Origin: a virus
Reading direction: 5' to 3' (one strand)
Length of the DNA stretch: 64,000 nt
IMG/VR virus record: IMGVR_UViG_3300045988_025287
Coordinates: 32,001 to 96,000 of that record
The translations under genes and the position numbers were made by a program. Positions 9,321 through 32,022 of this stretch are shown here, piece by piece. The notes beneath the pieces are model-generated. The model was not told the DNA's origin, ran no database searches, and worked only from the letters and a program-made list of their open reading frames with translations. Numbering within the stretch: the stretch's first letter is position 1; the number at the start of each line of letters is the position of its first letter.

Positions 9321-9541
9321 ACACCGGCTGCGCACGAACCCCATTCAGCTGCGTCTGCCAAGAATCGGAGGAAAACAGAAAAGTTCTTCCCGCAATATCA
9401 TGTGAGCGTTATATAATGATTACGTTTAGATGTGGTAGTGTATAAAAACCACTCCAGTTTGAGCATACTGTAAAAAGCTCATCATTACTTCACCAAGTAA
9501 TATATAGCCCTTATAGATTATTCACCAAAAAACATATTATC

Positions 9542-10258: not shown

Positions 10259-10267
10259 CCACTAATT

Positions 10268-10308
10268 AGAACAAGAGAATAGCATAGCAAAAATAATGCG
10301 CTTGTTCT
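10268..10308 (+). repeat. Conserved hairpin element, copy 1 (AGAACAAG-AGAATAG..TAATGCG-CTTGTTCT)
   Basis: 8-bp stem 10268-10275/10301-10308. The loop starts AGAATAGCATAGCA and ends TAATGCG. Homologous to 11177-11270, with compensatory stem changes. Confidence 0.7.
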
Positions 10309-10532
10309 ATAAATAAAAAAACTCAATAACTTCGGAGTAGCGTAAGCTACGGAGTTGTGTAACAATCCCAAGACATTGAGGGCACCAGTTTCTTATTCAT
10401 TTTACTAAACATAATTGTAATCTAAACTACTATAGGGATACTCCTTGGGAGGATAATTATATGACAGAGGAAGTAGTAGAATAAGTTTTAGGTGTAAAAT
10501 GCAATTTAATCATTAACTAAATAAATAATCAT

Positions 10533-10616
10533 ATGGACAGAGATACAAGATTAGGTATGTTATCAGTAATAATCACAATGATAGTATTATATCTATCTAT
10601 ATGGTTATTTAACTAA
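10533..10616 (+). CDS. Small hydrophobic peptide (27 aa)
   Basis: ATG at 10533, TAA at 10614-10616. Its upstream context CATTAACTAAATAAATAATCAT resembles the one before gene 11310. Confidence 0.35.
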   Translation: MDRDTRLGMLSVIITMIVLYLSIWLFN

Positions 10617-11176
10617 GATATACAGATTTATTCGCAAAGTAATTATTCTATGAAATGCAAATTATCCTCATATGTTGTGAAACATAGTTTAACCACGTTA
10701 AAGTATAATAATATAAGTTAGGTATGCCCTTATAAAGACTTAGGTAGCGCTAAGGACTATATTATTATACTTCTCTTCTTAATGCAACTACATCTCTCGT
10801 AAGCAATAACCGTGACAAGTCGGGGAGAGAACACATTTGAGTTTATGTGTCAAGAATGCAGAGTCAAGAATACTATATGAAACCTACTGGAGATAGGTAA
10901 TGCACAACCGTCAAGAGTGTAAGGAAGTATAGTATAATCCACGTGGTAGATGCAGTTGTAGGTTCCAACTGGTGCACATCTTTTAGAGACAGTAACCAAG
11001 CTCGAAGTAAGCAGAGCGAAGACAATTAGCTATACCTCGATAGGCTTAATGAGGTGCTTAACAGTCTGACACTAACTGAACAATAAGTGTCTGTTCATCC
11101 TCAAAGAGGAAAATGTTGAACTCTACAGACATGTAGACAGCTCCATTAACTCTAGCTGTAACAAAGAGTTATTAAT
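10617..11176 (+). ncRNA. ORF-free G+C-rich island D
   Basis: About 560 nt with no ORF in the track, visibly G+C-richer than coding DNA. Bracketed by the two homologous hairpins. Confidence 0.3.
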
Positions 11177-11270
11177 AGAGTAAGAGAATAGAAACGTGTA
11201 TATCTACGTAGTTCATAGCATAGCTTATAGTCGTATAACACAACATCGATTATATTAATGCGCTTACTCT
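11177..11270 (+). repeat. Conserved hairpin element, copy 2 (AGAGTAAG-AGAATAG..TAATGCG-CTTACTCT)
   Basis: 8-bp stem 11177-11184/11263-11270, followed by ATTATTTTTATT (terminator-like). Stem differs from copy 1 at two base pairs, both compensated. Confidence 0.7.
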
Positions 11271-11309
11271 ATTATTTTTATTGCATTAACTAACAAATAA
11301 ATCAATTAT

Positions 11310-11540
11310 ATGGAAACAAAAGTAATATTAGCTACATTTTACGTAATATTAGGCATATATAGTATGATAGTTTATTTAAGATACGGCTATAAAAAATATG
11401 AGGTGCTAACAGTAGCAGACATATTAGTATCTCTATTGATTATAGTTGGATGGCCGCTTCCATTACTAATGTTATTAGTCCATCATTTTCTACTTTTTAT
11501 ATGTAAACTTGAGGAAATTGTAATACTAAGAAAGAAATAA
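11310..11540 (+). CDS. Small membrane protein
   Basis: Intact ORF, two hydrophobic segments. Confidence 0.7.
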   Translation: METKVILATFYVILGIYSMIVYLRYGYKKYEVLTVADILVSLLIIVGWPLPLLMLLVHHFLLFICKLEEIVILRKK

Positions 11541-11560
11541 TTAATAAATAATATCAAATT

Positions 11561-11989
11561 ATGAAGAAAATAACTTGTATTCAGAATTATGTAATAGATA
11601 AGCTTATTGAAGACAAGAAATTGTCTACAAATAGTCTATTAGATGCAGTTTCTAAAGTATGTTCAAAGGAACAGTTTGATAATATACTGTCTATTCTTAT
11701 AGAAACACCTATTCCTTGTACAAATATGCCTGAATTAGAAAGCAAAACAAACTTAGTAAGAATGAGTATGTTTATATCTGAAGAAGCTGGCAATGAAACT
11801 AAATTGAGGATAATAAAAATACTAATGAACCAATTTGGTCTTGGTCTTAAACAAACTAAAGAATATGTAAATAGTTGTATAGGAAAATATAATATATTAC
11901 CTAAAGCTGTTATGCAAGCAGAAATAGATGAAGTTACAGAAAAATTAGAACCTTACAATGTAATTGTATCTACAGCAGGGTTTTATTAA
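11561..11989 (+). CDS. Protein with ribosomal L7/L12 C-terminal-domain-like region
   Basis: KLRIIKILMNQFGLGLKQTKEYVNS...AEIDEVTEKLEPYNVIV parallels E. coli L7/L12 [25 protein letters not shown]...AEALKKALEEAGAEVEV (recalled, not aligned by software). Confidence 0.55.
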   Translation: MKKITCIQNYVIDKLIEDKKLSTNSLLDAVSKVCSKEQFDNILSILIETPIPCTNMPELESKTNLVRMSMFISEEAGNETKLRIIKILMNQFGLGLKQTKEYVNSCIGKYNILPKAVMQAEIDEVTEKLEPYNVIVSTAGFY

Positions 11990-12493
11990 TAAGTTAATGC
12001 AGTAAATATTACTGCATCTTTAAGGTGAGAATCCTTAACAATCCTGTGGGGCTTATATCTCGTGTTTATAGTAGTGGTGTCACGAGTATTAGTGCAGACG
12101 TTAAAATCAGGAACAACTATATTAGACGGCAATATTACCTTCTTCCAGTCGCAAATGTCATATAGTTTAATATAGCCAAGTTCGTTCGTCCTTAGATTTA
12201 TGGTATTAGCCATTTGTTTATTTAATCATCGTTTCATTCTTAATTGTACAGATTGATTAATTAAGCATAACAGTAAGCGTACTGTTGTCAGTATATTTAT
12301 ATGTGAATATAGATATACTGATTGCACTCATTAAGGTAGCCTTCATGTGGCGAGTGTGTTAAGTAATAGGTCTAAAGAATCTTCCAGTTTGTACCTATGA
12401 AAACTAATACCTTTAACCGCCAGCTCACGCGGTATATAAGACAGGATTGCCGGACCCGCAGGTGTAACGAGATAAATACCTGCATTTTTTATT
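11990..12493 (+). ncRNA. ORF-free G+C-rich island E
   Basis: Starts with an 8-bp hairpin ATGCAGTA/TACTGCAT. Contains GTGCAGACGTTAAAATCA (12092-12109), shared with island F. Ends in the terminator at 12458-12493. The only ORF (minus strand, 11986..12213) is doubtful. Confidence 0.35.
12458..12493 (+). terminator. Rho-independent terminator
   Basis: Stem GCAGGT/ACCTGC (12458-12463/12478-12483), 14-nt loop, then ATTTTTTATT. Confidence 0.65.
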
Positions 12494-12531
12494 AACCTTA
12501 ATAATTATCAAGTTGTAAACTTTAATTTAAT

Positions 12532-12614
12532 GCCCAGATGGCGAAATAGGTAGACGCTAAGGTCTTAAACACCTTTGACCATTGGTCGTGCGGGTTCGAC
12601 TCCCGCTCTGGGTA
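12532..12614 (+). tRNA. tRNA-Leu (anticodon UAA), class II
   Basis: Cloverleaf by hand. Acceptor GCCCAGA/TCTGGGT, anticodon stem AAGGT/ACCTT with loop CTTAAAC, variable arm GACC-ATT-GGTC, T arm GCGGG-TTCGACT-CCCGC. Confidence 0.9.
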
Positions 12615-12643
12615 CAATTAGTAATTAACATTAAAATCTATTT

Positions 12644-12949
12644 ATGATAAAAGTAATTAAATATTATGAACTAAATCGAATTAGTAGAATATTAGTAATA
12701 GCAATAATAACATATATTGTTGGTATTCTAATTAAAAGAGAATACGAAGAGTCCAAAACTGTATATAATTTTGTAGATTTACAAATGAAGTACAAGAATT
12801 ATATATTAGTCAATAAAGAGAGAAGTATTACTAATGATGAAGAATATAAGTTCACATTACGTAATCCTATTACAAACCAAAATAGTACTGTATATGTAAA
12901 GTACTATCTATATCATCACGTATATTTTGTTGGAGATACTATAAAGTAA
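12644..12949 (+). CDS. Hypothetical protein with N-terminal TM segment
   Basis: Intact ORF. Confidence 0.7.
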   Translation: MIKVIKYYELNRISRILVIAIITYIVGILIKREYEESKTVYNFVDLQMKYKNYILVNKERSITNDEEYKFTLRNPITNQNSTVYVKYYLYHHVYFVGDTIK

Positions 12950-12968
12950 CATTTTAATCAATAAAAGT

Positions 12969-13337
12969 ATGAAAAGAGAAGAAATTAAATCTTACAAAGA
13001 CGCTTGTAGAGTAATAGGTAGAAAACCTAGAACTTATAAAGATAAGCATTTGAATCTGTATGAACAGCTTAGTGCAATTATAGCTGCTCTGAATTTCATT
13101 AGTAATGATAATAAACCTTGGACACCTAAGTTCGATTATTATTACATCTATTCTTGGTTATACAGAAAAGATGGATATAATAAATCTGCGGGTTTGTTCT
13201 ATTTGGCTTCTTACGCTGGGTTGGGCGCTTCCGGTGCTCTTGTCGGGACTTCTCTGAAAATAAAAGAGAGAGAAGATGGAAATTACATAATAGAAAACTT
13301 TAAAGAACTACTCCAAGATTGGTTTTGGGGAGATTAA
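12969..13337 (+). CDS. Hypothetical protein (122 aa)
   Basis: Intact ORF. Confidence 0.7.
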   Translation: MKREEIKSYKDACRVIGRKPRTYKDKHLNLYEQLSAIIAALNFISNDNKPWTPKFDYYYIYSWLYRKDGYNKSAGLFYLASYAGLGASGALVGTSLKIKEREDGNYIIENFKELLQDWFWGD

Positions 13338-13362
13338 TTACTAATTTTAAAACATTATCAAA

Positions 13363-13821
13363 ATGGAAAATGAAATGATGGCGAGACCCGAACCGCCAAG
13401 AAGAACTGTTTGGGTAATAGTAGCAATCATTGCCTTAATAGGCATGTTTGGAGCAATGATTTACGCAGAGCGTGAAAACATTGCCAATTTCTTAAATGGT
13501 GTGAACCAAGAAGAAATACAAGAAGATCCTCAAGTTATCATTGAGGAACCTGTAACAACAATACAGGATATTCTCGACATGAGAGAGCAAATGAGAGAAG
13601 ATAGAAGAGTTGATAGTGTATTTTTAGCTATGCCAAAGGTAGTATTAATTGATATTTTGATGCAGCATGGTACGTCATTGTCTATAAAAGACATAATTTA
13701 CATATATGAATCAAACACATCAACGTACAACACAGTATTATCTGGGGCAAGAGCTCAAAAATATCTTGATGACTCTATACAAACTCATGTTATATCAACT
13801 GTTGTAAACGACTCTATTTAA
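13363..13821 (+). CDS. Hypothetical protein with one TM segment
   Basis: Intact ORF. Confidence 0.7.
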   Translation: MENEMMARPEPPRRTVWVIVAIIALIGMFGAMIYAERENIANFLNGVNQEEIQEDPQVIIEEPVTTIQDILDMREQMREDRRVDSVFLAMPKVVLIDILMQHGTSLSIKDIIYIYESNTSTYNTVLSGARAQKYLDDSIQTHVISTVVNDSI

Positions 13822-14211
13822 GACTAGACCTTCTTTTTAGTTAATATTAGAGTCTAGTATACTCAGTCTGTGAAGATAGAGTATACGTCCTCAGAAAATG
13901 ACAAACATGTGGGGCGGGAGTAAATAAGTAAAACTAAGCAGTAGTATTATATATCAGTAAGGATACTACGCCGAATCTGATTGTTTTGTTTATTTATAGT
14001 CGTGCGGACGTTAAAATCATGTACTCCAATAAGATTTAGTTTGACAGCTATTTCTGCTTACGAGTTAAAACTATAGTGAGAGTCATAGTAAGTAACGATT
14101 GTAGTCGTTTATCTTTGTCTTATAACAAATGCTATAAACTAAGTTGGCACTAACTTAATTAAATCCTGAGTGCCCAGGCGTCATTATTAACAATTTAAAT
14201 TTTTTAGAAAC
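13822..14211. ncRNA. ORF-free G+C-rich island F
   Basis: Starts with a 7-bp helix ACTAGAC/GTCTAGT. Contains GTGCGGACGTTAAAATCA (14002-14019), 17/18 identical to island E. Confidence 0.35.
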
Positions 14212-14442
14212 ATGAAAAAGATTGGAGATTTTTTATTTGTAGAGCAATGCTTTACAGATACTGAAGAAACAAAAACTGCGGTAGTCAATATTAATTATAT
14301 TGACAGCATAACTCAGAGCTGCAATGACAAACTTGGAGACATTGTAGTCATAGAGACAGATAATACAAGAATTATCTGTAAAGATCCAGAGAATTTCTTT
14401 ACTGAGTTTGAGAATCTAATTTCAGATGAAGAAGAATGGTAG
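14212..14442 (+). CDS. Hypothetical acidic protein (76 aa)
   Basis: Intact ORF. Ends in TAG (14440) with an in-frame TAA three codons later (14452). Confidence 0.6.
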   Translation: MKKIGDFLFVEQCFTDTEETKTAVVNINYIDSITQSCNDKLGDIVVIETDNTRIICKDPENFFTEFENLISDEEEW

Positions 14443-14699
14443 TCAATAAAGTAAAAGAGGGCCGTAAATTAACTGAAATAAAGTTCAGTAACGACCACTA
14501 TCTCGCAAATCTATTAGCTACTACTAAAGTACTTGGCATATCGTTAGAACGAGCTAAAAAGCTATGTAGAACAGTACCAGGTAAGAGAGTAGAAGTTAAT
14601 CCACCTATTGAAATTATCAGTAAGTTAAATACTGATAAATTATTTGAAGAATTAGAGGAGTATGAAATAGAAGTATCTATTAGTATTCCCAGTAAATAA
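14436..14699 (+). CDS. Hypothetical protein, second L7/L12-CTD-like candidate
   Basis: KVLGISLERAKKLCRTVPGK...DKLFEELEEYEIEVSI follows the same pattern as the L7/L12 C-terminal domain. Weaker than 11561..11989. Confidence 0.5.
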   Translation: MVVNKVKEGRKLTEIKFSNDHYLANLLATTKVLGISLERAKKLCRTVPGKRVEVNPPIEIISKLNTDKLFEELEEYEIEVSISIPSK

Positions 14700-14716
14700 C
14701 TTATCAAAAGTAAAAC

Positions 14717-15184
14717 ATGAAAGCAATTGTTATTTCATTTGAAGGAGCTATAAAAGACGATAATATCTTTGCATCATTATTAGCTTCTTTTGTAGAGAAA
14801 CATGTAAACACTGAATCTGTAAATATCCATATTTTATCAGATATAGATGTAACAAATGCGCTAATAGCTAAGTGCTTAATTCCATCTGCTATAACAGTAG
14901 ACAGACCATCTAATCCGCAAATACCAGTAGTAGAAGATTTCTGTAAGAAGATTGTTTCATCTATTGGTTCACCCGCACTTAAAACACGAGAATTGTTAAA
15001 CTCAGAACTATGCAAGTTCTTAGTACAACAAAATCGTGAAGTTATTAGTGTTCCAGTAAGTATTATTGCTAAAGTAAATACTACTTCTGCGTATTACGAA
15101 CATCGCAAGGTACTAAAGGAATACGGTTTATCTGCATTACCTGAGTTATTACGCGATATTAACCCTCTATTTAAATTTTACTAG
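14717..15184 (+). CDS. Hypothetical protein (155 aa)
   Basis: Intact ORF in the co-directional block. Ends in TAG (15182) with a backup TAA at 15200. The antisense ORF 14704..15015 was rejected. Confidence 0.65.
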   Translation: MKAIVISFEGAIKDDNIFASLLASFVEKHVNTESVNIHILSDIDVTNALIAKCLIPSAITVDRPSNPQIPVVEDFCKKIVSSIGSPALKTRELLNSELCKFLVQQNREVISVPVSIIAKVNTTSAYYEHRKVLKEYGLSALPELLRDINPLFKFY

Positions 15185-15185
15185 T

Positions 15186-15284
15186 ATGGCAAAGAAGAAT
15201 AATGAAGAGCCTCCAAAGGAATTTAAAAAGAAGCCAAAACATAAAAAGATGGAGCCCTATAATCGTAAGAAAGCATGGAAATAG
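15186..15284 (+). CDS. Small Lys-rich peptide (32 aa)
   Basis: Hand translated: MAKKNNEEPPKEFKKKPKHKKMEPYNRKKAWK. Ends in TAG. Confidence 0.35.
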   Translation: MAKKNNEEPPKEFKKKPKHKKMEPYNRKKAWK

Positions 15285-15421
15285 ATAATAATTGTCCTAC
15301 ACTTGATAATCATATCAACTGTAGTGAATGTACTCATGAGTGTAAACTCAGAATGCAACCAAAGAATAGTAAAGAAGTAGAGGTTCCGCCAGAGCCTCTA
15401 CTTAATACTATATATTACTAA
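15275..15421 (+). CDS. Small Cys-containing protein (48 aa)
   Basis: Hand translated. CPTLDNHINCSECTHEC cluster. TAA at 15419-15421. Confidence 0.4.
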   Translation: MEIDNNCPTLDNHINCSECTHECKLRMQPKNSKEVEVPPEPLLNTIYY

Positions 15422-15460
15422 TTTAAATTGTTAGTAAAATGGTGGATTCAGTCAACCCAA

Positions 15461-15610
15461 AGAACTGTTTAAGACTAGAACCCTAATGGAAATTGTCAAT
15501 CAAGAGTACAATGGACTATACAACGGTCAACCACATTATATGTAGGTCAGGAGAAGGCAGGGAGTCTCCTGTTGAATAAGAAGTACAAATAGACAGGAAC
15601 AGTTCTTTTT
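15461..15610 (+). ncRNA. Structured element G, closed by a 9-bp long-range helix plus U-run
   Basis: AGAACTGTT (15461-15469) pairs with AACAGTTCT (15598-15606), followed by TTTTT. Internal 7-bp hairpin CAGGAGA/TCTCCTG (15548-15554/15565-15571). Confidence 0.4.
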
Positions 15611-15663
15611 AATTATTACTTAAATTTACTAAAAGATATGAGTAAAACAAAAAACAAATTAAA

Positions 15664-15891
15664 ATGTCATATTATATGACCAATATAATTATTACTCCTA
15701 CTTTATATGAGGAGAAAAGATTAGAAGCTATATCATACTTTAGCAGATGTAGTAGAGAAGCAGCACTAAGAATCCACAAAAAGAACAAATATAAAGATAT
15801 TAAATTGAAGCTAAACACTATAGCAGTAGCTATAATCGAGGCTAAAAAGAGATATTTTGATGATTGTTCTTTTATTAAGATTATATTATAG
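15664..15891 (+). CDS. Hypothetical protein (75 aa)
   Basis: Intact ORF. TAG stop with a TAA one codon later. Confidence 0.55.
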   Translation: MSYYMTNIIITPTLYEEKRLEAISYFSRCSREAALRIHKKNKYKDIKLKLNTIAVAIIEAKKRYFDDCSFIKIIL

Positions 15892-15935
15892 TGTTAAATA
15901 AATTTTATTGTTAAATCAATTAAACTGTATTCAAA

Positions 15936-16403
15936 ATGGCAGAAGTAAAGAAAATGAACATCCTTATAGAGGATGTAAATGGAGAAAACATCCAGGATGT
16001 AATCGCTAATTCAAGTAAGGTAACTGAAGAAATTGCAGAAGAAGCAGCAAAGAAAATTGCTGAACGACGCAAAGAAAAGTTAACGAAAGATTTAGTAGCT
16101 GTTGTTCAGAAGAGCGAATATACGGTATCCTCAGCGGTACTACAAGTTCGTCGTTCTAACAGAACAAACCAACGTATTAAACAGTACCTAAAAGATCTTG
16201 CTACACTGAAAGAAGAGATTGTAAGTGGAAAGAAACCTGTATCTGCATGGAAAGAGGAAGCTTATAATCTAAAGAAACAGTACGACAAGGATCTTATTGA
16301 GATTGGAAAGGATATCGACAAGTCCTTAAATGAACTTAACGAACTCTTTCCAGACTCTTGGCAGTGGAGATACGATGATTTAGTTCCTAATACTAATAGA
16401 TAA
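15936..16403 (+). CDS. Hypothetical coiled-coil-like protein (155 aa)
   Basis: Intact ORF, charged heptad-like composition. Confidence 0.75.
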   Translation: MAEVKKMNILIEDVNGENIQDVIANSSKVTEEIAEEAAKKIAERRKEKLTKDLVAVVQKSEYTVSSAVLQVRRSNRTNQRIKQYLKDLATLKEEIVSGKKPVSAWKEEAYNLKKQYDKDLIEIGKDIDKSLNELNELFPDSWQWRYDDLVPNTNR

Positions 16404-17048
16404 CTAAATCAAAACAAATAAAAGAGGTTCCAAGCTTAGAATCTTTGAATCAATAGCTTAGTATGTGAGTCGGAAATAGTTCTTTTGAACTCTAGGGCCT
16501 GAGGCATACAAGGACCTGAATTAACAGGTCTCATACAGAATTTTAAATCAGTTATGGGGAACTACCGTGAACTACTGATCATAAGTCTGAGATCGCGACA
16601 ATAAGATTGTCCTCTAGAAATAGAGAAACGCTCTAGTCGTGACATCAAGTTTAGACTGAATAATATGAATCTTTGAATCGTTTAAAGTATCTATACTTTA
16701 ACTATTATTCGTGTATTATCAAGATCAGTATAAGAGAACTAACCATTCTCAAGACCATAGGGTATATGACTTTGGTCGGTCATATACCCACAATAGAGTA
16801 GGTATAATACCGAACTGTAAAAAGAATTGACTGTTAGGTCTATTTATGCCTTCAGGTGACCGCGGGGCAGTACCGCGCACATCCACTAAAAAAATATAAT
16901 AAGGGTGTGAAATAGTATTGAACCGTTGAAACAGAATAGAATAGGTCAATAAGCAGATAACTGGCAATACAAGTTATGTAACGGACTATACTGGTATCGC
17001 AGCGTGATAACAGAGTCCAACGGCTAAGCTAATGTCGTAGAAAGCTGG
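16404..17048 (+). ncRNA. ORF-free G+C-rich island H
   Basis: About 645 nt. 13-nt exact direct repeat GAATCTTTGAATC at 16439-16451 and 16667-16679. GC hairpin CGCGG-GGCAGTA-CCGCG near 16862-16880. Ends at a tRNA-like module. Confidence 0.35.
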
Positions 17049-17128
17049 AGTAAGGATAGTACTCAGATGGTAGAGCGGTGAGATAATATCAAAAGCTGGT
17101 ATCGGAGGTTCGAGTCCTCCCCTTACTA
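17049..17128 (+). ncRNA. tRNA-like element without a canonical anticodon arm
   Basis: 7-bp acceptor AGTAAGG/CCTTACT. D-arm-like GTAC-TCAGATGGTA-GAGC. Perfect T arm GGAGG-TTCGAGT-CCTCC. I could not fold the 27 nt between the D and T arms into a 5-bp stem with a 7-nt loop. Confidence 0.5.
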
Positions 17129-17167
17129 CAAATAAAAAATTAAGTTTAATCAATAAATTAATTTGAA

Positions 17168-19456: not shown

Positions 19457-19531
19457 CCTCTTAAACTAATCCATCTTTTTAATTGTACTTAATAATAACT
19501 TTTATTTTAACACTTTAAAACATTATCAAAA

Positions 19532-21046
19532 ATGGCAAAAGAAATGAGTAAGGCTGAAAGAAAGGCAGCCTTGAAAGCAGCAAAAGCAGCAGCAAAAGCT
19601 GAAGCTAAAGTAAACAACACTGAGAACAAGAAAGAGGAAACTAATCCTCAGGTAGATAACAAGCCGAAAGATGCTAAAGTAGAGGATGCAAAGAAAGCTC
19701 CTACTACAGCTAAGGAAACTAAGGTTCAGGCGAAGAAGGATGCCCCTAAAAGTCCGGATAAGCCTAAGAAGAAGGAAGAGAAAATTCCTACAATCATTCC
19801 TGAAGATGCAACAGGTAAGAACAGCCCTGAAAAGAAAGCTGTAGAACGTGCTGCAAACCTTATCACAGGAATTCCTACGGCCGGTATACCTATTGGTTCA
19901 AGAGAATCATCTGTTGATGGTAAGGCTATGTTAGCATTTGTAATGCAACAGCGTTATGCTAACAATGAAGAACTCAAGAAGCAATATCCTGAGTTATATG
20001 CAGACATCAATCGTAGCATTGATGTAGTTACTTTGTTAGCTCTTGTCGATGTACGTCAAGACTTGTTCGACCGTGGTGAACGTGGCGAATTGCAGTTACA
20101 GATAGCTGCAGACCAAGTATTACCGCTGCAAAGTATGGCAGAAATGCTAGGTATTAAACTAGCTCCTGCTAAAGCTCTGCCTGGGAATGATGGGCAAATG
20201 TCTATTAACTTCTCAGAAAGTGAAGTACCTACAGAACTTGCAAACAGCAAGCCAAAAGTAGAAATTCCAGAGCTTGATCCTAACAAGATTACTAATGATG
20301 AGGAATTGAAAACTGCCCTTAATTACCTCATCTCTAAAGAGAAGAATGTGGCAGAAAATATAGTTAACACTGTAGAATGGTATCGTGTATATCGCGGCCT
20401 GAAAGAAACTAATGCAGATAAGAAGCTTGCATTAGACGAAAAGACAGTTACAGATTGGATTAATGAGATATTCTCTATTATCCAACCTACAGCCATCTTA
20501 CGTGGTTTAGGTCGTGCTGTATACTTATATACTTCACAGACAGGTTCACCGTGTATGGCTCACTCTATCATGCATACACATATGTCTAAGGCTGGTTGGA
20601 GTGAAGAACAAGTAGCAGAAGCATTACGTGCTTTAATTGGAGAAAACTTCCGTTATAAACTGAAGGATGATCCTGAAGCAAAGCCTGAAGAAGATAAAGC
20701 AATTAATGCTATTACTGGCTTACTAGGCAATGACTATATTGATAAGTTATTTGCCGACTATACTATTACTACTGATGGTGTAGAAGACAGTAAGAAAGTT
20801 GAACTTGAAGCTGCACGTGAAGTTGCCCGTAAGGTTCTAGGGAGTATTCGTACCAATTACTTTGACAAACAGAAGGAGACTCCTACGCTTGATAAGATGC
20901 GTATGGTAGTAGGTCAGATTATTAATCTGTATCGAAATCCGGCTGATCGTCTTGCAGAGTATTGTCAAGGAGATTTAATCGCTCCAAAGGAAGACGAATA
21001 TCCTAAGAATGAAGAGAAATCTGAAGGGACTGAAAAAAAAAACTAA
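19532..21046 (+). CDS. Hypothetical 504-aa protein with Lys/Ala/Glu-rich N-terminal ~100 residues
   Basis: Intact ORF. The AKAAAKAEAK...KKDAPKSPDKPKKKEEK low-complexity head resembles histone-H1-like basic repeats. Confidence 0.85.
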   Translation: MAKEMSKAERKAALKAAKAAAKAEAKVNNTENKKEETNPQVDNKPKDAKVEDAKKAPTTAKETKVQAKKDAPKSPDKPKKKEEKIPTIIPEDATGKNSPEKKAVERAANLITGIPTAGIPIGSRESSVDGKAMLAFVMQQRYANNEELKKQYPELYADINRSIDVVTLLALVDVRQDLFDRGERGELQLQIAADQVLPLQSMAEMLGIKLAPAKALPGNDGQMSINFSESEVPTELANSKPKVEIPELDPNKITNDEELKTALNYLISKEKNVAENIVNTVEWYRVYRGLKETNADKKLALDEKTVTDWINEIFSIIQPTAILRGLGRAVYLYTSQTGSPCMAHSIMHTHMSKAGWSEEQVAEALRALIGENFRYKLKDDPEAKPEEDKAINAITGLLGNDYIDKLFADYTITTDGVEDSKKVELEAAREVARKVLGSIRTNYFDKQKETPTLDKMRMVVGQIINLYRNPADRLAEYCQGDLIAPKEDEYPKNEEKSEGTEKKN

Positions 21047-21117: not shown

Positions 21118-21519
21118 ATGAATAATAGAATGTTAACTGTAGTTGGAATGTTTGTTGTCAGTGTATTCATTGGTAGGCAAATGTTTGCAACTACAGAAGT
21201 TATACAGGCACAGCCTGTTATACCCTCTATAGTGGAGTTACCTAACTTCCCTAAAGTAATAAAAGAGGAGAAAAAGTCTGTAGATGAGATAAATGTCGAA
21301 GTCGACTTATCTACATTAGAAGTATCTGTGAAAGGAACAACAGACGCAAAAGTGAATGTAAAAACTACTGGTGAACCAAAGCCAGTAGTTAAGTGGAAAA
21401 CTAAAGTAATAGAGAAGACGAATTCAACAGGATATCCGAAAGTAAAAGCTATAAGTAAGGTATCTGATGACGAATCACCGGCAACTCCATTAACAATAGT
21501 AGATAAATATGAACAATAA
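21118..21519 (+). CDS. Hypothetical protein with N-terminal TM/signal-like segment
   Basis: Intact ORF. Confidence 0.7.
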   Translation: MNNRMLTVVGMFVVSVFIGRQMFATTEVIQAQPVIPSIVELPNFPKVIKEEKKSVDEINVEVDLSTLEVSVKGTTDAKVNVKTTGEPKPVVKWKTKVIEKTNSTGYPKVKAISKVSDDESPATPLTIVDKYEQ

Positions 21520-21931
21520 AATTATACTTCAACAGATGATACGTCTATCACGTATCATTAAGGACTCAAGAGAAGCAAGAGCTAAATTGAATTCTATTCA
21601 AGCTCAAACTGAATACTTTATAGTAGAAGGTAATCAGTCTACTTTTATTAGAGACCAAGCTAACAGTAGTATAACTAATTGTTTATATGTAGAACAGTAC
21701 TTACGTTCGTCTGTAAGTAATGCTTGTAAATGTTTGGATGGTTTTGATGCTTCAAAAATGGAACCAATAGACTACATCAGTAGTAGTGATGTAAAAAATA
21801 AGTTTGTCGACATATGTCTAGGTAAGAAAGTAGTAGCTTCTATTAATCTTACCACTGGTGAAATAATAAGCATCAATACACCAAAACAAGGATTAACGGC
21901 TAAAGATGACAGCCCTACGGTAAAAAGTTAG
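21509..21931 (+). CDS. Hypothetical protein (140 aa)
   Basis: Intact ORF. Ends TAG-TGA-TAA-TAA (21929-21940). Confidence 0.7.
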   Translation: MNNKIILQQMIRLSRIIKDSREARAKLNSIQAQTEYFIVEGNQSTFIRDQANSSITNCLYVEQYLRSSVSNACKCLDGFDASKMEPIDYISSSDVKNKFVDICLGKKVVASINLTTGEIISINTPKQGLTAKDDSPTVKS

Positions 21932-24037
21932 TGATAATAACCGTATAATAAATACTATAATTATATCACAGTTCGAGAGGAGTAAAACTATAGCGTAAAT
22001 CACTCCGAGGAAGTCATGCGGTAAGGTATATAATAATACTGGTCGCACCTGTCAGGGAGTTTGGAATCATTTCTCCATAGCCCGAAAAGTTACATGATCC
22101 GAGAATATGTTAGCAGCTAAAACTGTGAGATTACTCAAAAGGTAGGATGTTAGCTTATGTAATTGAAAACTACATAAGAGGGGATAAGCGTGTACAATCC
22201 TCATTAGGAAGTGAGAACCGTTTGGAGACTTCTAAAGACGCAGTACTAAAGAGAAGACACACTGAGTGCTAAACAGTACAAAGGGAACGAAATCCCTATA
22301 TCCGTATTAGTTTATCAAAAGCAGAATCAAAAAGGGATATAAACACGATGACGAAACAGGGACAATACGGTTCCTGACTTATTCCTTTGGAAAGAATAAG
22401 TAAAGCCGAGAGGCAAAGGTTAGTTTCACCTTAAGAAGCAGCCAGCTCGTGGAAAAAAAGAGATTGCAGATAACGCATTACCGGTCTCCAAAATCGGTTA
22501 ACAAAAGCGCTACTGTGCGTCCAGAAAGGGAAACAGGCTAACTCTAGTGTTCAGTATACATCAGCTGTGATGCAATATGCAATTGTGGATATTGGAACTT
22601 ATACTTATGAAGGGAGTAAACTACTAATACTAATGTAAGGATAACCGTGTTATGGTACATACTTATACAAAGTAAGGATATGAAAGCTGGAAACGCAATG
22701 ATCCAAGAATTAAACGTGCAAACGTTAAAGCTTGACTGATTAACGTGGAGCAGGAGCCAATCCTGTACATTATCGTAAATAGTGTGCTGTAAAAGAACTT
22801 ACGTATAAGGGATGAGGTATATGAGATTGATACCATCTTTCAAGTCTAAGGTGACTCATGAGTTTTGTCGTGTAGATGAGTATAATGTATGAGAAATGAC
22901 GAGACTAAAATATAATAGTCTAAAATGCGAGTATGAGGGCGCTATAACCCTGAACTTAGAAGCGGACACCTTTAGCAAGTGTTATTACGTGGTAATAAAT
23001 AAGATTAGGAGATGCAGAGAAAACTCCTTGTAAAAAACGGCAGAGCTTAAGCATTTCAAGATATGTAAATGCCTTTGATTTATTATGCTAGTTCACACCA
23101 GAATTTTGGATAATAAACATCGTTATGGATTAAGGAAGTAAATAGAGTTATTAAAGATGCTTTAGAGTTAGAATCCTAAAACCAGTTTAGTAATAATTAT
23201 AGTATATGATGATATACTTAATGAATCAATTTTACTTACGCTGAGTAGAGTCAGCTATGACAAAATGAACTCTAATTATTTAACTTTTTAATTAATTGGG
23301 AAGTCCAATGATAGTACAGAGATTTCAAACTACTATTGTAAAGTAGGAGTTAAGGAGTACGAGTCACCCCGACTGCCAACCGACATTGCTGACTGTTAAG
23401 ACACTCGTAAAGTACAATGCGCAACATTGTATGTGAGAGAACGCTGAGTCGTTAGTTACCTGTGTTGTTTCTTACACTGTCTCTGTAAGGGCAATAGTAC
23501 ACTTATGATGAAAGTATTCCATAAGCAAACAAGGAGACGATGATAGGTGGAAATCCTAATGTTCGTGCAGTATAAACAAACAAATCCTGGAAATGGTATA
23601 GATGGGTCATGCTATAAGCAATGAGTCTATGATTTTAGTAATGTTAGATTAAACAACCGTAATTCTAGCGAATTTCGATAATATCCGGACATACTCAGTA
23701 GGTTCTAAGGAACTGATGATAAAGTGGCTTATATCGCATCTAATCGCGTTATACGCTTACGGTGAGGGGTGCGTTAAGCATCGAAGGAATTGAATCTTAA
23801 CCGTCGAAACGGGACGTTAAAACAAAAAATATCAGAAATTATCAGAAGTAACTCACAGAGTATTTCTCATAAATTTTCAATTTATTATTTTTATGCTTAG
23901 TAGATTATGTGATTGAGTTCACCTATTCCAATTTTGAATAGCTATTAAATAATCGAACGGTGGAGAGACTTTAACAATTTTTTGTATAACTATGTTCGTA
24001 TTGGTATATCAAGTACGGACTCAAAAAGGAACATTTT
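21932..24037. ncRNA. ORF-free G+C-rich island I (2.1 kb), probably two or more structured RNAs
   Basis: No ORF of 60 codons or more in any frame. An AT-rich spacer at about 23160-23300 splits it into parts of roughly 1.1 kb and 0.55 kb. Hairpin GCATTT/AAATGC plus T-rich tail at 23051-23084. The GGGACGTTAAAA motif at 23811-23824 is shared with islands E and F. Confidence 0.4.
23830..23847 (+). promoter_or_regulatory. TATCAGAA direct repeats (2 copies, 10-nt phase)
   Basis: TATCAGAAATTATCAGAA is identical to 31970-31987. About 190 nt upstream of gene 24038. Confidence 0.5.
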
Positions 24038-24664
24038 ATGGAAAATAATATTAATGGAGCTAACACTCCGGGTTTAGCAGCTCAAATTTTAGCTCGCTAT
24101 CGGCAAACAGCCCAGAAGTTTGGGCCTTTCTTTGGACAGCAGATATTTACAATCGTAGCACAGACTCCTGACCTTAAGTGGAAAGAAGATGTAGCTACAG
24201 GTAAGAATACTTTCCGTCAGGAAGTAAAAGCTTATATTCTCAAGGCTATTGATGTTGAGTCAGTTAGTTTACTTGAGAAGGATGTTGATGGACGTCCGAA
24301 AATCATCTTGAATGAAAAGAAGAATGATCCATCATTAGTTTTTGAGCTTGCTGATCCTGAATTTACTAAAGCAACCCGGCAGAATGTAATTGAATGTATT
24401 GAACGGTTGAGTAAACCAGGCTCTAAGCCTATGTTCTTTACAGCTGAAGAACTTCCTATGTTGAATGACTTAACTAAGTTATCCAACCAGAGTGTGTTGA
24501 ACTTCTATGAAGAAATGACACGTAAGTGTATGCAGTTAGCTGAAACTGTCCGTGGTTATATGGATATGAATCAGCGTATGCAGGTTGAGTATTTACGGCA
24601 GTGCGGTTTAGATAATCAGGAAACTGAAATTCACGTAACTGCTACAATTACTGAAGAAAAATAG
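24038..24664 (+). CDS. Hypothetical protein (208 aa), ends in TAG-TAG
   Basis: Intact ORF. The next ORF is in the same frame, 4 codons later. Confidence 0.75.
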   Translation: MENNINGANTPGLAAQILARYRQTAQKFGPFFGQQIFTIVAQTPDLKWKEDVATGKNTFRQEVKAYILKAIDVESVSLLEKDVDGRPKIILNEKKNDPSLVFELADPEFTKATRQNVIECIERLSKPGSKPMFFTAEELPMLNDLTKLSNQSVLNFYEEMTRKCMQLAETVRGYMDMNQRMQVEYLRQCGLDNQETEIHVTATITEEK

Positions 24665-24673
24665 TAGAAGCTT

Positions 24674-25237
24674 ATGAACGGCAGACTTTCTTCATTACGT
24701 GTAGAACTTCTGCGAATTCTAATATGTTCTGAGCCAGCCATATTGTCTAAAATTCAGATTTGGAATGGAGGACGTACAGAAACGCCTAAAAAAGTAAGTA
24801 TTAGAGAAGATGGACGGGTCTTCCTATTTTACGGAAGTGGGCCATTATGGTGGCAAAGATTATTTAATACTTATGAATCGGTAAGTATTATAGATGCTTC
24901 TATTAGTATAGCAGATGCAATCACTGGGTCGAATTCGACTCGAAATGAATTTGCTTTTAACGAGATTACTAAGAGTATAATCGACGAAGCAAAGAAACGT
25001 AAGGATTTCGATTGTATTGTTGATATTTTGTTTGATTGTATGAGGAATTGTTCAGATGGGGAACTACATTCCAAATGGATTAATCAAGAGAATATCAAAA
25101 AATATGCAAGAGAAAATGGTATAACCAATGTTGAAGACATTAACCTTGAAGGGCTTAATGGAATAGTTGGAATTAAGACTGGTGGACGGGTTATTCCTAT
25201 AGTACTCGGCCAGTTAAGAAAATTTAGAAAATATTGA
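24674..25237 (+). CDS. Hypothetical protein (187 aa), or C-terminal half of a 399-aa readthrough product
   Basis: Same frame as 24038..24664, separated only by TAG TAG AAG CTT. Confidence 0.7.
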   Translation: MNGRLSSLRVELLRILICSEPAILSKIQIWNGGRTETPKKVSIREDGRVFLFYGSGPLWWQRLFNTYESVSIIDASISIADAITGSNSTRNEFAFNEITKSIIDEAKKRKDFDCIVDILFDCMRNCSDGELHSKWINQENIKKYARENGITNVEDINLEGLNGIVGIKTGGRVIPIVLGQLRKFRKY

Positions 25238-25268
25238 TTTGGATATTATCTTAAAACAACATAATTTC

Positions 25269-25319
25269 ATAGTACTGAACTGGGTACTATTTATAGTAAT
25301 TACTGCTGAATTGGGCAGT
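25269..25319 (+). other. Two similar stem-loops with loop TGAA(C/T)TGG just upstream of tRNA-Arg
   Basis: ATAGTAC-TGAACTGG-GTACTAT (25269-25290) and ACTGC-TGAATTGG-GCAGT (25302-25319). Confidence 0.5.
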
Positions 25320-25330
25320 TATTACTACAC

Positions 25331-25404
25331 AGTTCCTTAGCTCAACTGAATAGAGCAACACACTTCTAATGTGTAGGTTATGGGTTTGAATCCCATAGGA
25401 ACTA
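25331..25404 (+). tRNA. tRNA-Arg (anticodon UCU)
   Basis: Acceptor AGTTCCT/AGGAACT, D stem GCTC/GAGC, anticodon stem ACACA/TGTGT with loop CTTCTAA, T arm ATGGG-TTTGAAT-CCCAT. Confidence 0.9.
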
Positions 25405-25459
25405 CTACTGGTAGATGTAGTTTGGTCGAGTATTTAACATTTAAAAAACATTAATCAAT

Positions 25460-26019: not shown

Positions 26020-26048
26020 TAGTATTAACAATTTAATTATCAAAAATT

Positions 26049-26880: not shown

Positions 26881-26951
26881 TCTCATGTAGCTCAGTGGTA
26901 GAGCCGCTACTATGTAGTGTGAACGCGTTGGTTCGAGTCCAACCATGAGAT
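26881..26951 (+). ncRNA. tRNA-like element with aberrant anticodon arm (loop contains CUA)
   Basis: Good acceptor TCTCATG/CATGAGA, D arm GCTC-AGTGGTA-GAGC and T arm GTTGG-TTCGAGT-CCAAC. The anticodon region CGCTA-CTATG-TAGTG gives a 5-nt loop, or a 7-nt loop ACUAUGU with C at position 33. Confidence 0.5.
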
Positions 26952-26973
26952 CTAACTTTTAAATACTTATAAT

Positions 26974-28953
26974 ATGATTATACGAGGAAAGATAGTCTAC
27001 GTATATGATATTGAGGTATTTCAAAATATCTTTCATTGTTCGGTAAAAAATACAGAAACAAACGACATCTATAAGTTTGAGATATCAGAGAGGAAAAATC
27101 AACTAAGAGAATTAGTTAAATTCTTTAAACAGGTAGATAAATATATTACTTGGGGAGATTATTATACTACAAATATTAATATTCCAGCAAATATTATATT
27201 CTGTGGTTATAATAACTTGCATTATGATAATCCTATAATCAATTATATAATTGAATATGAAGATAAATTAATGCAATATAATATACCTACTATATGTAGT
27301 TCTATATTTAACCTAAGTAAAACTATAACTACTTCGAGTGAAGATAATATAGATGCATGGAAGCATTGGAAGTATCAGATATGGTTTGATACTTTTGATA
27401 TTCTTACTATGTTATATTCTAATAAACTTAGAGTAGGTTTAAAGGAAATTCAAGTAACAATGCAATATCCTAATGTACAGGAATTTGTATGTGATTGGAC
27501 TAAACCTCTTCCTTTAGAAGATTTTGACTCTATGATAGATTATAATATTAATGATATTGAATCTACTTCAGAATTATTAAATAGATGTAAGAAAGACATT
27601 GATTTACGAATCGCTATTGAAGATGAGTATGGAGTAAGAGTACTTAGTAAAGATGGCGTAAATATTGGAATAAAGATTTTAACTCAGAAATATCTAGAAA
27701 AGACAGGTTTAACTTGGCAGGATATTAAAGATTTAAGATCTCCAATGAGTGTAATACCATTGAAAGATGTAATATTACCATTTATTAAATATGATAGCCC
27801 TATTCTGCAAAGAGTATTAGATGATATGAAAAATCAGATAGTATCTCCAGGTAGAAAAGGATATGAGAATAAGTTTGTATTTAATAATTTACGCTATTCT
27901 GTAGGAGTAGGAGGTATTCATTCTGTGAATAGTCCTGAAATCATTATTCCTAGAGATGATGAAATGCTTATAGATATAGATGTAGCTTCTCTATACCCAA
28001 GTATGCTTATAGAATATGAATTCTATCCTAAACATTTAGGTAAAGAATTCCTAGAAGTATATAAGCAAATTAAAGATGAGCGAATTGAAGCTAAACACAA
28101 CGGCGATAAAGTAAAAAATGAAACTTTAAAGTTAGCTTTAAATGGTTTATCAGGTAACTTACAGAATGAACATAATTTCTGTTATGCCCCCGAAGCTGCT
28201 ATGAAAATTAGAATCAACGGACAGTTACTATTACTTATGTTAGCTGAAAAATTAACTCAAATTGGATGCCGAATCGTCCAAGCAAATACTGATGGTTTAT
28301 TCGTCTTACTAAAGAAAGATATATATTCTAAAGTAAACAGTATTTGTAGAGAATGGGAACAGCTTACTAAACTTACTTTAGAAGAAGATCGTTTTAAAGC
28401 AATGTATCAATATGCTATTAATGATTATTTTGCTATTACTGAAGATAACAAAGTAAAAGAGAAAGGAATGTTTATTACTACTGTAAAATTAGGTAAAGGA
28501 TTAACTCCAAAGATTATACCTAAAGCAGTAATAAGTTTCTTTAAAGATGGAATATCAGTTGAAGATACAATTAAGAATTGTACAGATATAAGAGATTTTC
28601 TAATGTCTGAGAAAACTGGTAAACAATGGCATGTTGAATATATGAACGAGGAGCAACAAAGAACTAATCGTTTCTACGCATCTACTAATGGTGGATACTT
28701 GTGGAAATGGAAAGATACTGGTCATAAAGAAGGTGAAATTATAACATATACTGAGCCATACGTAGGAGAACGTAAATATAAGGCTTCTGCAAGACAGTAT
28801 CAGAATATGCTTACTGCATCTGGTGTTACTCTTCTAAATAAATTTGATAATAAACCAATTGAAGAAAGAAAGATTAATTATAGGTATTATATTATGGAAG
28901 CCTATAAGATAATCAGAGATTTAAAACCGTTACAATTGAGCCTATGGGATTAA
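26974..28953 (+). CDS. Family B DNA polymerase
   Basis: Exo I DIEVF, Exo II NNLHYDNPII, Exo III YNINDIES. Pol motif A DVASLYPS, motif B KLALNGLSGN, motif C QANTDGLFV. Confidence 0.9.
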   Translation: MIIRGKIVYVYDIEVFQNIFHCSVKNTETNDIYKFEISERKNQLRELVKFFKQVDKYITWGDYYTTNINIPANIIFCGYNNLHYDNPIINYIIEYEDKLMQYNIPTICSSIFNLSKTITTSSEDNIDAWKHWKYQIWFDTFDILTMLYSNKLRVGLKEIQVTMQYPNVQEFVCDWTKPLPLEDFDSMIDYNINDIESTSELLNRCKKDIDLRIAIEDEYGVRVLSKDGVNIGIKILTQKYLEKTGLTWQDIKDLRSPMSVIPLKDVILPFIKYDSPILQRVLDDMKNQIVSPGRKGYENKFVFNNLRYSVGVGGIHSVNSPEIIIPRDDEMLIDIDVASLYPSMLIEYEFYPKHLGKEFLEVYKQIKDERIEAKHNGDKVKNETLKLALNGLSGNLQNEHNFCYAPEAAMKIRINGQLLLLMLAEKLTQIGCRIVQANTDGLFVLLKKDIYSKVNSICREWEQLTKLTLEEDRFKAMYQYAINDYFAITEDNKVKEKGMFITTVKLGKGLTPKIIPKAVISFFKDGISVEDTIKNCTDIRDFLMSEKTGKQWHVEYMNEEQQRTNRFYASTNGGYLWKWKDTGHKEGEIITYTEPYVGERKYKASARQYQNMLTASGVTLLNKFDNKPIEERKINYRYYIMEAYKIIRDLKPLQLSLWD

Positions 28954-31948: not shown

Positions 31949-31969
31949 TTAAAATATCTTATTCCATTT

Positions 31970-31998
31970 TATCAGAAATTATCAGAACTTTATCAGAG
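31970..31998 (+). promoter_or_regulatory. TATCAGA(A/G) direct repeats (3 copies, 10-11-nt phase)
   Basis: Copies start at 31970, 31980 and 31991. They lie 25-53 nt upstream of gene 32023. The first 18 nt are identical to 23830-23847. Confidence 0.55.
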
Positions 31999-32022
31999 GA
32001 ATACAAAAAAATAAAAGCTTTT

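Follow-up and report, generated by a model that had tools for sequence, protein, structure and literature searches.

The stretch of DNA analysed here (the window) comprises 64,000 nucleotides (nt), positions 32,001 to 96,000 of the IMG/VR virus record IMGVR_UViG_3300045988_025287, and its feature of interest is a 2.1-kb interval without long open reading frames (ORFs) at positions 21932-24037, between two plus-strand genes that are each complete with their own start and stop. The closest relative of the interval found by blastn is crAss-like phage cr53_1 (NC_055889; Suoliviridae, Loutivirinae, Blohavirus), with 92.9% identity over the whole query (counterpart at 85521-87647 of that record, minus strand), and the window belongs to a Suoliviridae ("delta"; Loutivirinae) crAss-like phage of the human gut. 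Such phages are among the most abundant human-gut viruses. Between about 9.5 and 38 kb the genes, which include those for a sigma factor, DNA polymerase and further replication functions, occupy the plus strand; outside this block they are on the minus strand. GC skew inflections occur at about 9 kb and about 38 kb of the window and none at the interval. The order at the locus is sigma factor, an ORFan of about 500 amino acids (aa), two small ORFs, the gap and an ORFan of about 205 aa. As a whole, these data are probably best explained if the plus strand from 21932 to about 23825 encodes a large structured non-coding RNA (ncRNA) of some 1.9 kb whose family is not represented in Rfam.

The 2.1-kb stretch is non-coding. 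An earlier note, made from the letters of the window, had described an ORF-free, G+C-enriched island in a genome with almost no intergenic space. Its first point holds, since no ORF of 60 or more codons is present on either strand between 21931 and 24038 (the largest encodes 57 aa), and TAG readthrough does not rescue coding, as the note had argued: when a single stop codon is reassigned, the longest plus-strand frame is 55 codons for TAG, 74 for TGA and 101 for TAA. A conserved protein-coding signal, which the note had named as the observation that would speak against its view, was not found, because there is no long open frame, variable sites are spread evenly over the codon phases (52/54/53%) without 3-periodicity, and only 13-22% of indels are divisible by three. 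The absence of ORFs is the chance expectation for 2.1 kb of non-coding DNA at 36% GC; chance does not account for the conservation of a non-coding stretch of this length, which exceeds that of the neighbouring genes. The compositional claim is weak: the interval is marginally richer in GC than the window (35.9% vs 32.1%), but its flanks are as rich (38-42% at 19.5-21 kb and 37-40% at 24-24.8 kb), so that GC is not a marker of the region. The AT-rich stretch pointed out within it is real (28% GC at 23000-23299), whereas the supposed scarcity of intergenic space is contradicted by five other ORF-free gaps of 0.6-1.3 kb in the same plus-strand block, each with known ncRNAs (among these gaps are RAGATH-6, -7 and -9, two Hatchet ribozymes, a permuted tmRNA and a tRNA).

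By blastn, the whole 2.1 kb was found in eight Loutivirinae records at 71-93% identity, always between the same two flanking genes and mostly unannotated, and an exact 18-mer from the region matched more than 119 IMG/VR contigs. The 82 full-length copies, from which 18 representatives below 96% identity were retained, are 2054-2224 nt long, with 65-75% nucleotide identity between lineages. In the same genomes, nucleotide identity between genera is about 70-75% for the region vs 60-64% for an equal length (2.1 kb) of coding DNA from its flanks, and the downstream protein has 53-57% aa identity; the region is better conserved than its neighbours. With a profile of the Loutivirinae alignment, two collinear islands were detected in the Oafivirinae member cr131_1, in the lemur-derived Dulem virus 42 and in additional contigs from IMG/VR and mis-binned metagenome-assembled genomes (MAGs), and in these divergent lineages the ORF-free gap again measures 2.03-2.20 kb. 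With the upstream ORFan of about 500 aa as a synteny anchor, the same gene order was recovered in cr124_1, cr7_1 and cr130_1 (Oafivirinae) and in cr50_1 (Boorivirinae), with gaps of 2162, 2171, 2025 and 2514 nt, respectively. The locus thus occupies one syntenic site in three Suoliviridae subfamilies and the lemur phage, at 2.0-2.5 kb throughout. Empty-site alleles were seen in no lineage, and no cellular copy was found, as all 9 genome-collection matches are phage-sized contigs of about 98-101 kb or short fragments mis-binned into MAGs of unrelated taxa.

The evidence for RNA structure comes from compensatory change. An energy-free helix search demanding at least 3 compensatory pairs returned 20 helices on the plus strand vs 7 on the minus strand, and when helices were defined from Watson-Crick pairs alone, their G-U pairs exceeded A-C by 25:7, where composition predicts parity. 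When the structure was taken from the window alone, 64% of the double-changed cells in other clades were canonical, compared with 47-51% in flanking coding DNA; slid partners gave 0.34-0.43 on the same measure, although the real excess is smaller, since the coding controls reach 0.47-0.51 at register 0. For matched sequence sets, RNAalifold energies were -485/-451 for the plus strand of the region, -436/-402 for its minus strand and -297/-269 for coding DNA, with 14/13, 8/9 and 3-4 strongly covarying helices, respectively. The consensus of the 18-sequence alignment (423 pairs) is 94% paired, with 177 pairs changed on both sides vs 38-48 for slid controls; because this structure came from its own alignment, the coding controls are the fairer yardstick. 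Column-shuffled-alignment z-scores on 160-nt tiles were dropped as uninformative, the coding flanks also giving z = -3 to -6. Compensatory changes on one strand therefore stand above the phylogeny-matched background, which is the mark of a conserved structured ncRNA, and the structured non-coding RNA that the earlier note had proposed is borne out by covariation in homologs from related phages. On its plus strand the interval thus carries a structured RNA locus of several domains, on which purifying selection acts more strongly than on the neighbouring proteins.

About 20 well-supported helices extend across 21932-23816 and form a chain of closed domains with no demonstrable global fold (Table 1). 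Stems are free to vary, and loops, linkers and junction strands are near-invariant. The helices labelled as compensated closing helices in Table 1 have compensatory variants among the 82 sequences. At the 5' end, the first hairpin is 100% paired with both sides changed in 4/8 pairs (stem variants UGAUA/UAUCA, UGACA/UGUCA, UAGUA/UACUA and CAUCA/UGAUG). Divergent lineages carry a different covarying hairpin in the 5' domain, and their Core A starts 35-60 nt past the upstream stop. The hairpin at 23051-23072, with its T-rich tail, had been proposed as the end of the first of at least two transcripts (roughly 1.1 and 0.55 kb). The hairpin exists, and its stem covaries (GCAUUU/AAAUGC, GUCUUU/AAAGAC, ACCUUU/AAAGGU, AAGUUU/AAACUU and ACGUUU/AAACGU), but its loop CAAGAUAUGU is invariant, the U-tail occurs only in the clade of the window, and a terminator scan did not call it; from this pattern of conservation it looks like a functional structural hairpin and not a terminator.

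The two collinear islands correspond to two deeply conserved multi-helix parts of the element, Core A (about 180 nt) and Core B (about 275 nt). A covariance model of Core A, built from two near-identical sequences and a hand-drawn structure, gave exactly one full-length, same-strand match per genome, first in a set of 30 and then in four added Suoliviridae (34/34), the weakest being that in cr50_1, one of the four (26.6 bits, E = 1.3e-5). In the alignment obtained with the model, pairing is kept in 95.4% of cells, both sides have changed in 29 of the 33 pairs, and 212 double-changed cells contrast with 17-33 in slid controls (0/500 shuffles equalled the observed values). The Core A hairpins also emerge when single sequences from distant lineages are folded independently. 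Core B is collinear with Core A in all divergent lineages (nhmmer). In an alignment-free check with the loops nUUGUAA, CUGUCUC and U[GU]GAAAU as anchors, 9, 12 and 9 distinct pairing stems were observed, and the closing helix of Core B occurs in five complementary variants (ACUGC/GCAGU, ACUAC/GUAGU, ACAGC/GCUGU, AGUAC/GUACU and AGUGC/GCACU). Sequence, order and spacing of the two cores are kept across at least three subfamilies, at an A-to-B distance of about 1.05-1.25 kb, and profile and covariance-model scans never found them apart or elsewhere in the genome. Anticodon-stem-loop mimicry by the conserved 7-nt loops was considered by eye and set aside, only nUUGUAA fitting the U33/R37 pattern.

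Table 1. Features of the 2.1-kb interval and of its genomic setting (window positions unless stated otherwise).
Feature	Position	Strand	Details
Upstream gene	21509-21931	+	complete ORF
5' hairpin, 8 bp	21932-21968	+	starts 1 nt past upstream stop; A/T-rich conserved loop with invariant CTATAATTAT
5' domain (Loutivirinae)	21969-22049	+	near-invariant GUUCGAGAGGAGUAAAAC...CACUCC hairpin (21979-83:22002-06)
Variable covarying hairpin of 5' domain	22008-11:22048-50	+	
Core A, seven-helix junction	22050-22227	+	P1 22050-54:22223-27; P2 22055-57:22081-83; P2a 22062-65:22074-77 (loop UCAUU); P4 22097-100:22145-48; P3 22113-16:22123-26; P5 22154-61:22171-78 (loop YUGAAAA); P6 22180-84:22198-202 (loop ARAGCGUnGUAYCAA); invariant junction strands GAGAAUAUGU, CAAAAGGUAGGAU, UGAGAACCGU
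Covarying hairpin chain	22228-22540	+	22282-86:22293-97; 22357-63:22370-76; 22377-87:22392-401; 22480-85:22493-98; 22513-16:22533-36
45-nt motif, copy A	22296-22340	+	22299-306:22333-39 with 22308-13:22319-24
Lineage-specific insertion	~22412-22470	+	within hairpin chain
Closed module	22541-22617	+	compensated closing helix 22541-45:22613-17 (CG<->AU, CG<->UA); interior varies by lineage
Central part	22618-23072	+	best conserved in Loutivirinae; invariant UAACCGUGUUAUGGUACA
Closed module	22662-76:22798-809	+	compensated closing helix; lost as a unit in cr4 clade
Central hairpins	22810-20:22830-41; 22866-75:22892-901; 22965-72:22977-83	+	
Hairpin	23051-58:23064-72	+	invariant loop CAAGAUAUGU, covarying stem
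Variable AT-rich linker	23073-23297	+	less conserved; covarying helices 23136-39:23234-37, 23161-66:23176-80, 23240-43:23252-55
Core B	23298-23571	+	B1 domain, compensated closing helix 23314-17:23357-60 around hairpin 23330-34:23342-46 (loop nUUGUAA); junction, compensated closing helix 23372-76:23567-71, with 23412-19:23425-32 (loop nGCAAn), compensated closing helix 23449-53:23536-40, 23471-76:23484-90 (loop CUGUCUC), 23544-47:23555-58 (loop UGGAAAU); invariant CCAACCG and UAUAAA
3' domain, covarying hairpins	23572-23825	+	23597-603:23625-31; 23642-45:23652-55; 23727-37:23746-56; 23773-78:23796-801; 23802-05:23813-16
TATCAGA repeats	23829-23860	+	two to three copies, ~10-11-nt phase (TATCAGAAATTATCAGAAGTAACTCACAGA)
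Candidate 5' untranslated or regulatory region of downstream gene	23861-24037	+	conserved AGUAGAUUAUGUGAUUGA
45-nt motif, copy B	23990-24034	+	helix 23995-24004:24009-19; ends in A-rich ribosome-binding region
Downstream gene	24038-24664	+	complete ORF
tRNA-Arg	1.3 kb downstream of interval		genes between
tRNA-His	2.8 kb downstream of interval		genes between
RAGATH-6	10625-10775	+	Rfam
RAGATH-7	10870-11092	+	Rfam
Hatchet ribozymes (two)	12016-12112, 13887-14022	+	Rfam
tRNA-Leu(UAA)	12532-12615	+	
RAGATH-9	15448-15608	+	Rfam
Permuted transfer-messenger RNA (tmRNA)	16826-17007	+	56 bits
Coding-sequence calls in homologs of the RNA locus (piece coordinates)	L006 2938-3375; L007 2940-3377; L151 8039-8521; L132 3916-5924; L128 5470-6039		
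HNH insertion sites	cr53_1 piece 9515-9940 and 11547-14127 vs window 25238-25459 and 26974-28953		

We place the 3' limit of the RNA body near 23825 because the last ~210 nt (23829-24037), as far as their motifs tell, are probably a promoter or operator together with the 5' untranslated region (UTR) of gene 24038 and lie outside the large RNA. The phased TATCAGA element is probably an operator or promoter of middle genes, including the downstream gene: an identical 18-mer (TATCAGAAATTATCAGAA) with three phased TATCAGA copies occurs at 31969-31997, 33-54 nt 5' of ATG 32023, and TTATCAGA is invariant in Loutivirinae and absent from the divergent (Oafivirinae-like) lineages. No U-tract terminator follows the 3' domain (23572-23825). 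The 45-nt direct repeat formed by copies A and B has 76% identity, and both copies are conserved. Copy B consists of a hairpin and an A-rich ribosome-binding motif just 5' of ATG 24038, so that this arrangement is duplicated inside the RNA, and in some lineages both copies show the same change from CAAAAAGG to CAAGAAGG.

Large, intricately folded ncRNAs are rare in bacteria and phages, and nearly all of those studied showed unusual biochemistry, such as that of ribozymes, RNA nanocages and ribonucleoprotein machines. GOLLD and ROOL are large ornate ncRNAs associated with phages or prophages and found near tRNA genes. A search of Rfam 15 gave no family at the gathering threshold in the 2.1-kb interval and none at E<=10 on 21700-24300, one chance fragment aside, and three divergent homologs had no Rfam match at E<=1. 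The fragment belongs to GEBRO (RF02988), the only Rfam alignment in the region (22445-22511), which covers 66 of 350 model positions (33-98) within a lineage-specific insertion at 15.5 bits vs a gathering score of 284.7 (E = 0.19) and was rejected as a chance match. Of the candidates listed in the earlier note, GOLLD, ROOL, group I and group II introns, tmRNA and RNase P gave no signal there even at E<=10, and its last suggestion, something new, is favoured by the lack of any Rfam match. Group I and II introns are likewise large structured RNAs common in phage genomes, but neither the group I catalytic core (RF00028) nor the group II models (RF00029, D1-D4) matched the region or the three divergent homologs; an intron was also rejected as there is no intron-encoded ORF (none of 60 aa or more), the position is the same in all lineages, and the flanking genes are complete, separate and conserved as separate genes in all of them.

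The likeness to GOLLD (RF01998) and ROOL (RF03087) is a functional analogy only: these too are large, multi-domain structured phage ncRNAs with conserved loops and junctions and variable peripheral stems. By contrast, the present element, at about 1.9 kb, is two to three times longer than GOLLD and ROOL (roughly 0.6-0.8 kb), matches neither model in sequence or structure at any threshold, and is carried by lytic crAss-like phages of Bacteroidota and not by Bacillota prophages. Nothing in the sequence comparisons points to a single closed global fold or to multimerisation. The phage context agrees with that of GOLLD and ROOL; the nearest tRNAs are 1.3 and 2.8 kb downstream with genes between, a loose linkage. 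RAGATH-6, -7 and -9 and Hatchet (RF02686, RF03159, RF03146 and RF02678) share its genome, strand and gene block (10.6-15.6 kb) and are also orphan structured RNAs from human-gut metagenomic phage DNA; they differ as single-domain RNAs of 100-220 nt with ORFs between them, and the RAGATH, Hatchet, twister, hammerhead and pistol models had no match in 21700-24300 even at E<=10. On these comparisons the element appears to represent a new RNA family, whose likeness to GOLLD and ROOL goes no further than that of a large ornate phage RNA, and it is most likely a new large, ornate, trans-acting RNA. In the searchable literature we found no paper linking crAss, Crassvirales or Suoliviridae with such an RNA, and Rfam 15 has no entry for it. 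Non-coding regions are not mentioned in Yutin et al. 2021 (PMC7886860), RAGATH is absent from the main text of Weinberg et al. 2017 (PMC5737381), and single hairpins of the element may be present, anonymously, in bulk catalogues of viral motifs of 29-151 nt (PMC10690425). The analogy with GOLLD and ROOL is based in part on 10.1101/2024.12.08.627333.

How such an RNA might work can be outlined tentatively. It would be transcribed with, or just after, the upstream early/middle genes, because the first covarying hairpin lies 1 nt past the stop and no promoter is recognisable. It may fold autonomously and act in trans as an ornate RNA like GOLLD, ROOL or OLE. The invariant unpaired nucleotides could form tertiary or quaternary contacts, line a pocket for catalysis or ligand binding, or touch a host partner that is itself invariant; since they are kept while proteins are only about 25% identical, such roles would fit them better than a fast-evolving phage protein partner. 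As a speculation we favour a host partner in the translation or RNA-processing machinery, because these phages carry a permuted tmRNA, tRNAs, ribozymes and TAG recoding. It is possible, though we put it forward with caution, that the whole of the ~1.9 kb is one RNA whose two invariant junction cores either act as catalytic centres or dock onto a host machine that does not vary (ribosome, RNA-processing machinery or RNA polymerase), and that a phage family among the commonest in the human gut uses it to reprogram its host.

Several points weigh against a single large ncRNA or limit the evidence for it. The case is one of sequence comparison, and the trans-acting or host-partner mechanism is inferred. 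The only arguments for one RNA are that its full length and the distance from A to B are conserved and that signals are lacking inside it, because no inter-domain helix is supported: the candidates LR1-LR4 are invariant or contradicted among the 82 sequences. The whole-element structure, with its 177 double-changed pairs, was derived from the same alignment and its counts are inflated, as are those for Core A, whose alignment was fitted to the covariance model, although the excess seen for Core A is very large. Folded as a single sequence, the region reaches -479 kcal/mol vs -552 and -517 for the coding flanks, so stability by itself is no evidence. Scans for promoters and terminators and for shared intergenic k-mers recognised neither signal for the RNA; sigma-70-like promoter matches were fewer than expected from shuffles, and there is no terminator at either end. 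The neighbouring proteins give no functional hint in library, PDB or fold searches.

The main rival, which we consider somewhat unlikely, is an array of independent small or medium RNAs (e.g., Core A, the central part and Core B) that are separately transcribed or cut from a precursor. Each supported helix is either local or closes one domain of 80-250 nt, none joins domains, and modules are gained or lost as units, as seen for the deletion of 22662-22809 in the cr4 clade and the insertions at 22412-22470. An array would also agree with the less conserved AT-rich linker between two better conserved halves (23073-23297) and with the many separate small ncRNAs of this genome, including two self-cleaving Hatchet ribozymes. 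However, the RNAs of the 10-17 kb cluster are separated by ORFs and none intervene here, scans of the interior revealed neither a promoter nor a terminator nor a known ribozyme, Cores A and B were never found apart or elsewhere in a genome, and the total length of 2.03-2.2 kb (2.5 kb in cr50_1) as well as the order and spacing from A to B have been kept across deep divergence.

A cis-acting UTR is improbable. It would be either a giant 3' UTR of the upstream operon, serving as a stabiliser or processing platform, or a long leader for the downstream genes, and the position of the first covarying hairpin 1 nt past the upstream stop, the want of a recognisable 5' promoter or 3' terminator, and the resemblance of the 45-nt motif at 22296-22340 to the translation-initiation region of gene 24038 would all suit it. 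Nevertheless, known UTR elements of bacteria or phages come nowhere near 1.9 kb with two junction cores invariant across subfamilies; the RNA evolves much more slowly than the genes on either side, which is unexpected if it merely served them, and in Loutivirinae a separate promoter- or operator-like element separates the RNA from the downstream gene. An element acting as DNA (replication origin, packaging site or protein-binding array) is very improbable: it might be suggested by the location in a replication-gene module and by the phased TATCAGA repeats at the 3' end, but the skew turns at ~9 and ~38 kb, away from the locus, the body contains no iterons or direct repeats, and pairing is kept by compensatory changes in dozens of helices, with G-U tolerated and A-C not (25:7) and the plus strand surpassing the minus strand, so that a single-stranded RNA of defined polarity is indicated. 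Protein-coding DNA masked by an odd code, frameshifting or introns, or a decayed pseudogene, has a negligible chance of being correct despite TAG recoding in the late genes and the small coding sequences (CDSs) in RefSeq/GenBank records of the homologous region (cr113_1, cr109_1, cr7_1 and Dulem virus 42), as no single-stop reassignment yields a long plus-strand frame, phase variability is even, few indels are multiples of three, the positions of the annotated CDSs differ between lineages, and conservation with covariation excludes a decaying pseudogene.

Annotated CDSs in the homologous locus include minus-strand "hypothetical proteins" of 145-160 aa in cr113_1, cr109_1 and cr7_1 and a string of ORFs of 31-102 aa in Dulem virus 42, and the annotation of cr131_1 gp30 extends into Core A. 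Considering that their positions are not conserved, these CDS calls are most likely spurious, and the locus thus flags erroneous annotations in reference genomes. In addition, crAss-like phage contigs of ~98-101 kb were found binned into MAGs of Gastranaerophilaceae, Sphaerochaeta, uncultured Bacilli (from rabbit), Bacteroidaceae and Segatella copri; such mis-binning could mislead host assignment, although two of these labels, Segatella and Bacteroidaceae, may point to the real hosts.

The neighbouring proteins had no PHROG, Pfam, NCBIfam or PDB-sequence match. The 504-aa neighbour (19532-21046) has about 100 homolog clusters, all on crAss-sized contigs, and no Pfam domain. Its AlphaFold2 model has a predicted local distance difference test (pLDDT) score of 69, with an all-alpha core at 80-93 and a disordered Lys/Ala-rich N-terminal region of ~100 residues; the core had no fold match in PDB (best E = 0.25). 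The all-alpha fold appears to be new, and the protein may be an ORFan that binds nucleic acid and is conserved together with the RNA locus.

Several observations concern other parts of the genome. Minus-strand late genes at 38.5-64 kb are open only with TAG as sense, which raises the longest frame from 337 to 4175 codons and the summed long frames from 2721 to 7271 codons; the plus-strand block (9.5-38.5 kb) uses the standard code, and the three tRNAs of the window all lack a CUA anticodon. TAG TAG (24662-24673) closes gene 24038-24664, which is in frame with the next ORF (24674-25237). The counterparts of these two ORFs are annotated as a single 399-aa protein in cr53_1 and are separate genes in different frames in cr4_1; the tandem TAG could permit a stage-dependent read-through fusion in a TAG-recoding phage. 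The DNA polymerase gene of cr53_1 is split by an HNH endonuclease gene, the window polymerase being an intact ORF of 659 aa, and cr53_1 has a second HNH gene where the window carries only tRNA-Arg. These differences between 93%-identical genomes probably represent insertion polymorphism of mobile introns or homing endonucleases. For tRNA-His (26881-26952), ARAGORN gave an odd call with anticodon "atg" at loop position 32; the Rfam tRNA score there is 46 bits, and the homologous site of cr53_1 is annotated as tRNA-His. A TTAAAACATTATCAAAA-like motif lies just 5' of the ATG of three plus-strand genes (13347-13362, 19515-19531 and 26029-26048), and shared intergenic k-mers revealed 16 copies of TTATCA[AG]A in the plus-strand block vs 3.4 expected, mostly abutting start codons; this is possibly a phage motif for translation initiation or a promoter. 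The tmRNA is also annotated or detected 5' of the sigma factor in cr131_1, cr124_1, cr7_1, cr130_1, cr50_1 and the MAG-binned contig L147, and the ncRNA cluster at 10259-17167 places the orphan families RAGATH-6, -7, -9 and Hatchet in Suoliviridae crAss-like phages.

Suoliviridae thus spend at least 5 kb of a genome of ~100 kb on RNA genes. Within this investment the ~1.9-kb RNA locus, occupying a fixed site in the early/middle replication-gene block, appears from its distribution to be a hallmark of Suoliviridae crAss-like gut phages, and it combines strong covariation with unpaired nucleotides that are invariant across subfamilies whose proteins are ~25% identical. Core A and Core B offer concrete, testable targets of small size. 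If the ~1.9 kb is indeed one RNA, it would, ribosomal RNA aside, exceed in size every structured ncRNA known from phages or bacteria, and with catalytic or docking roles for its cores it would represent a new functional class, not just a new family.

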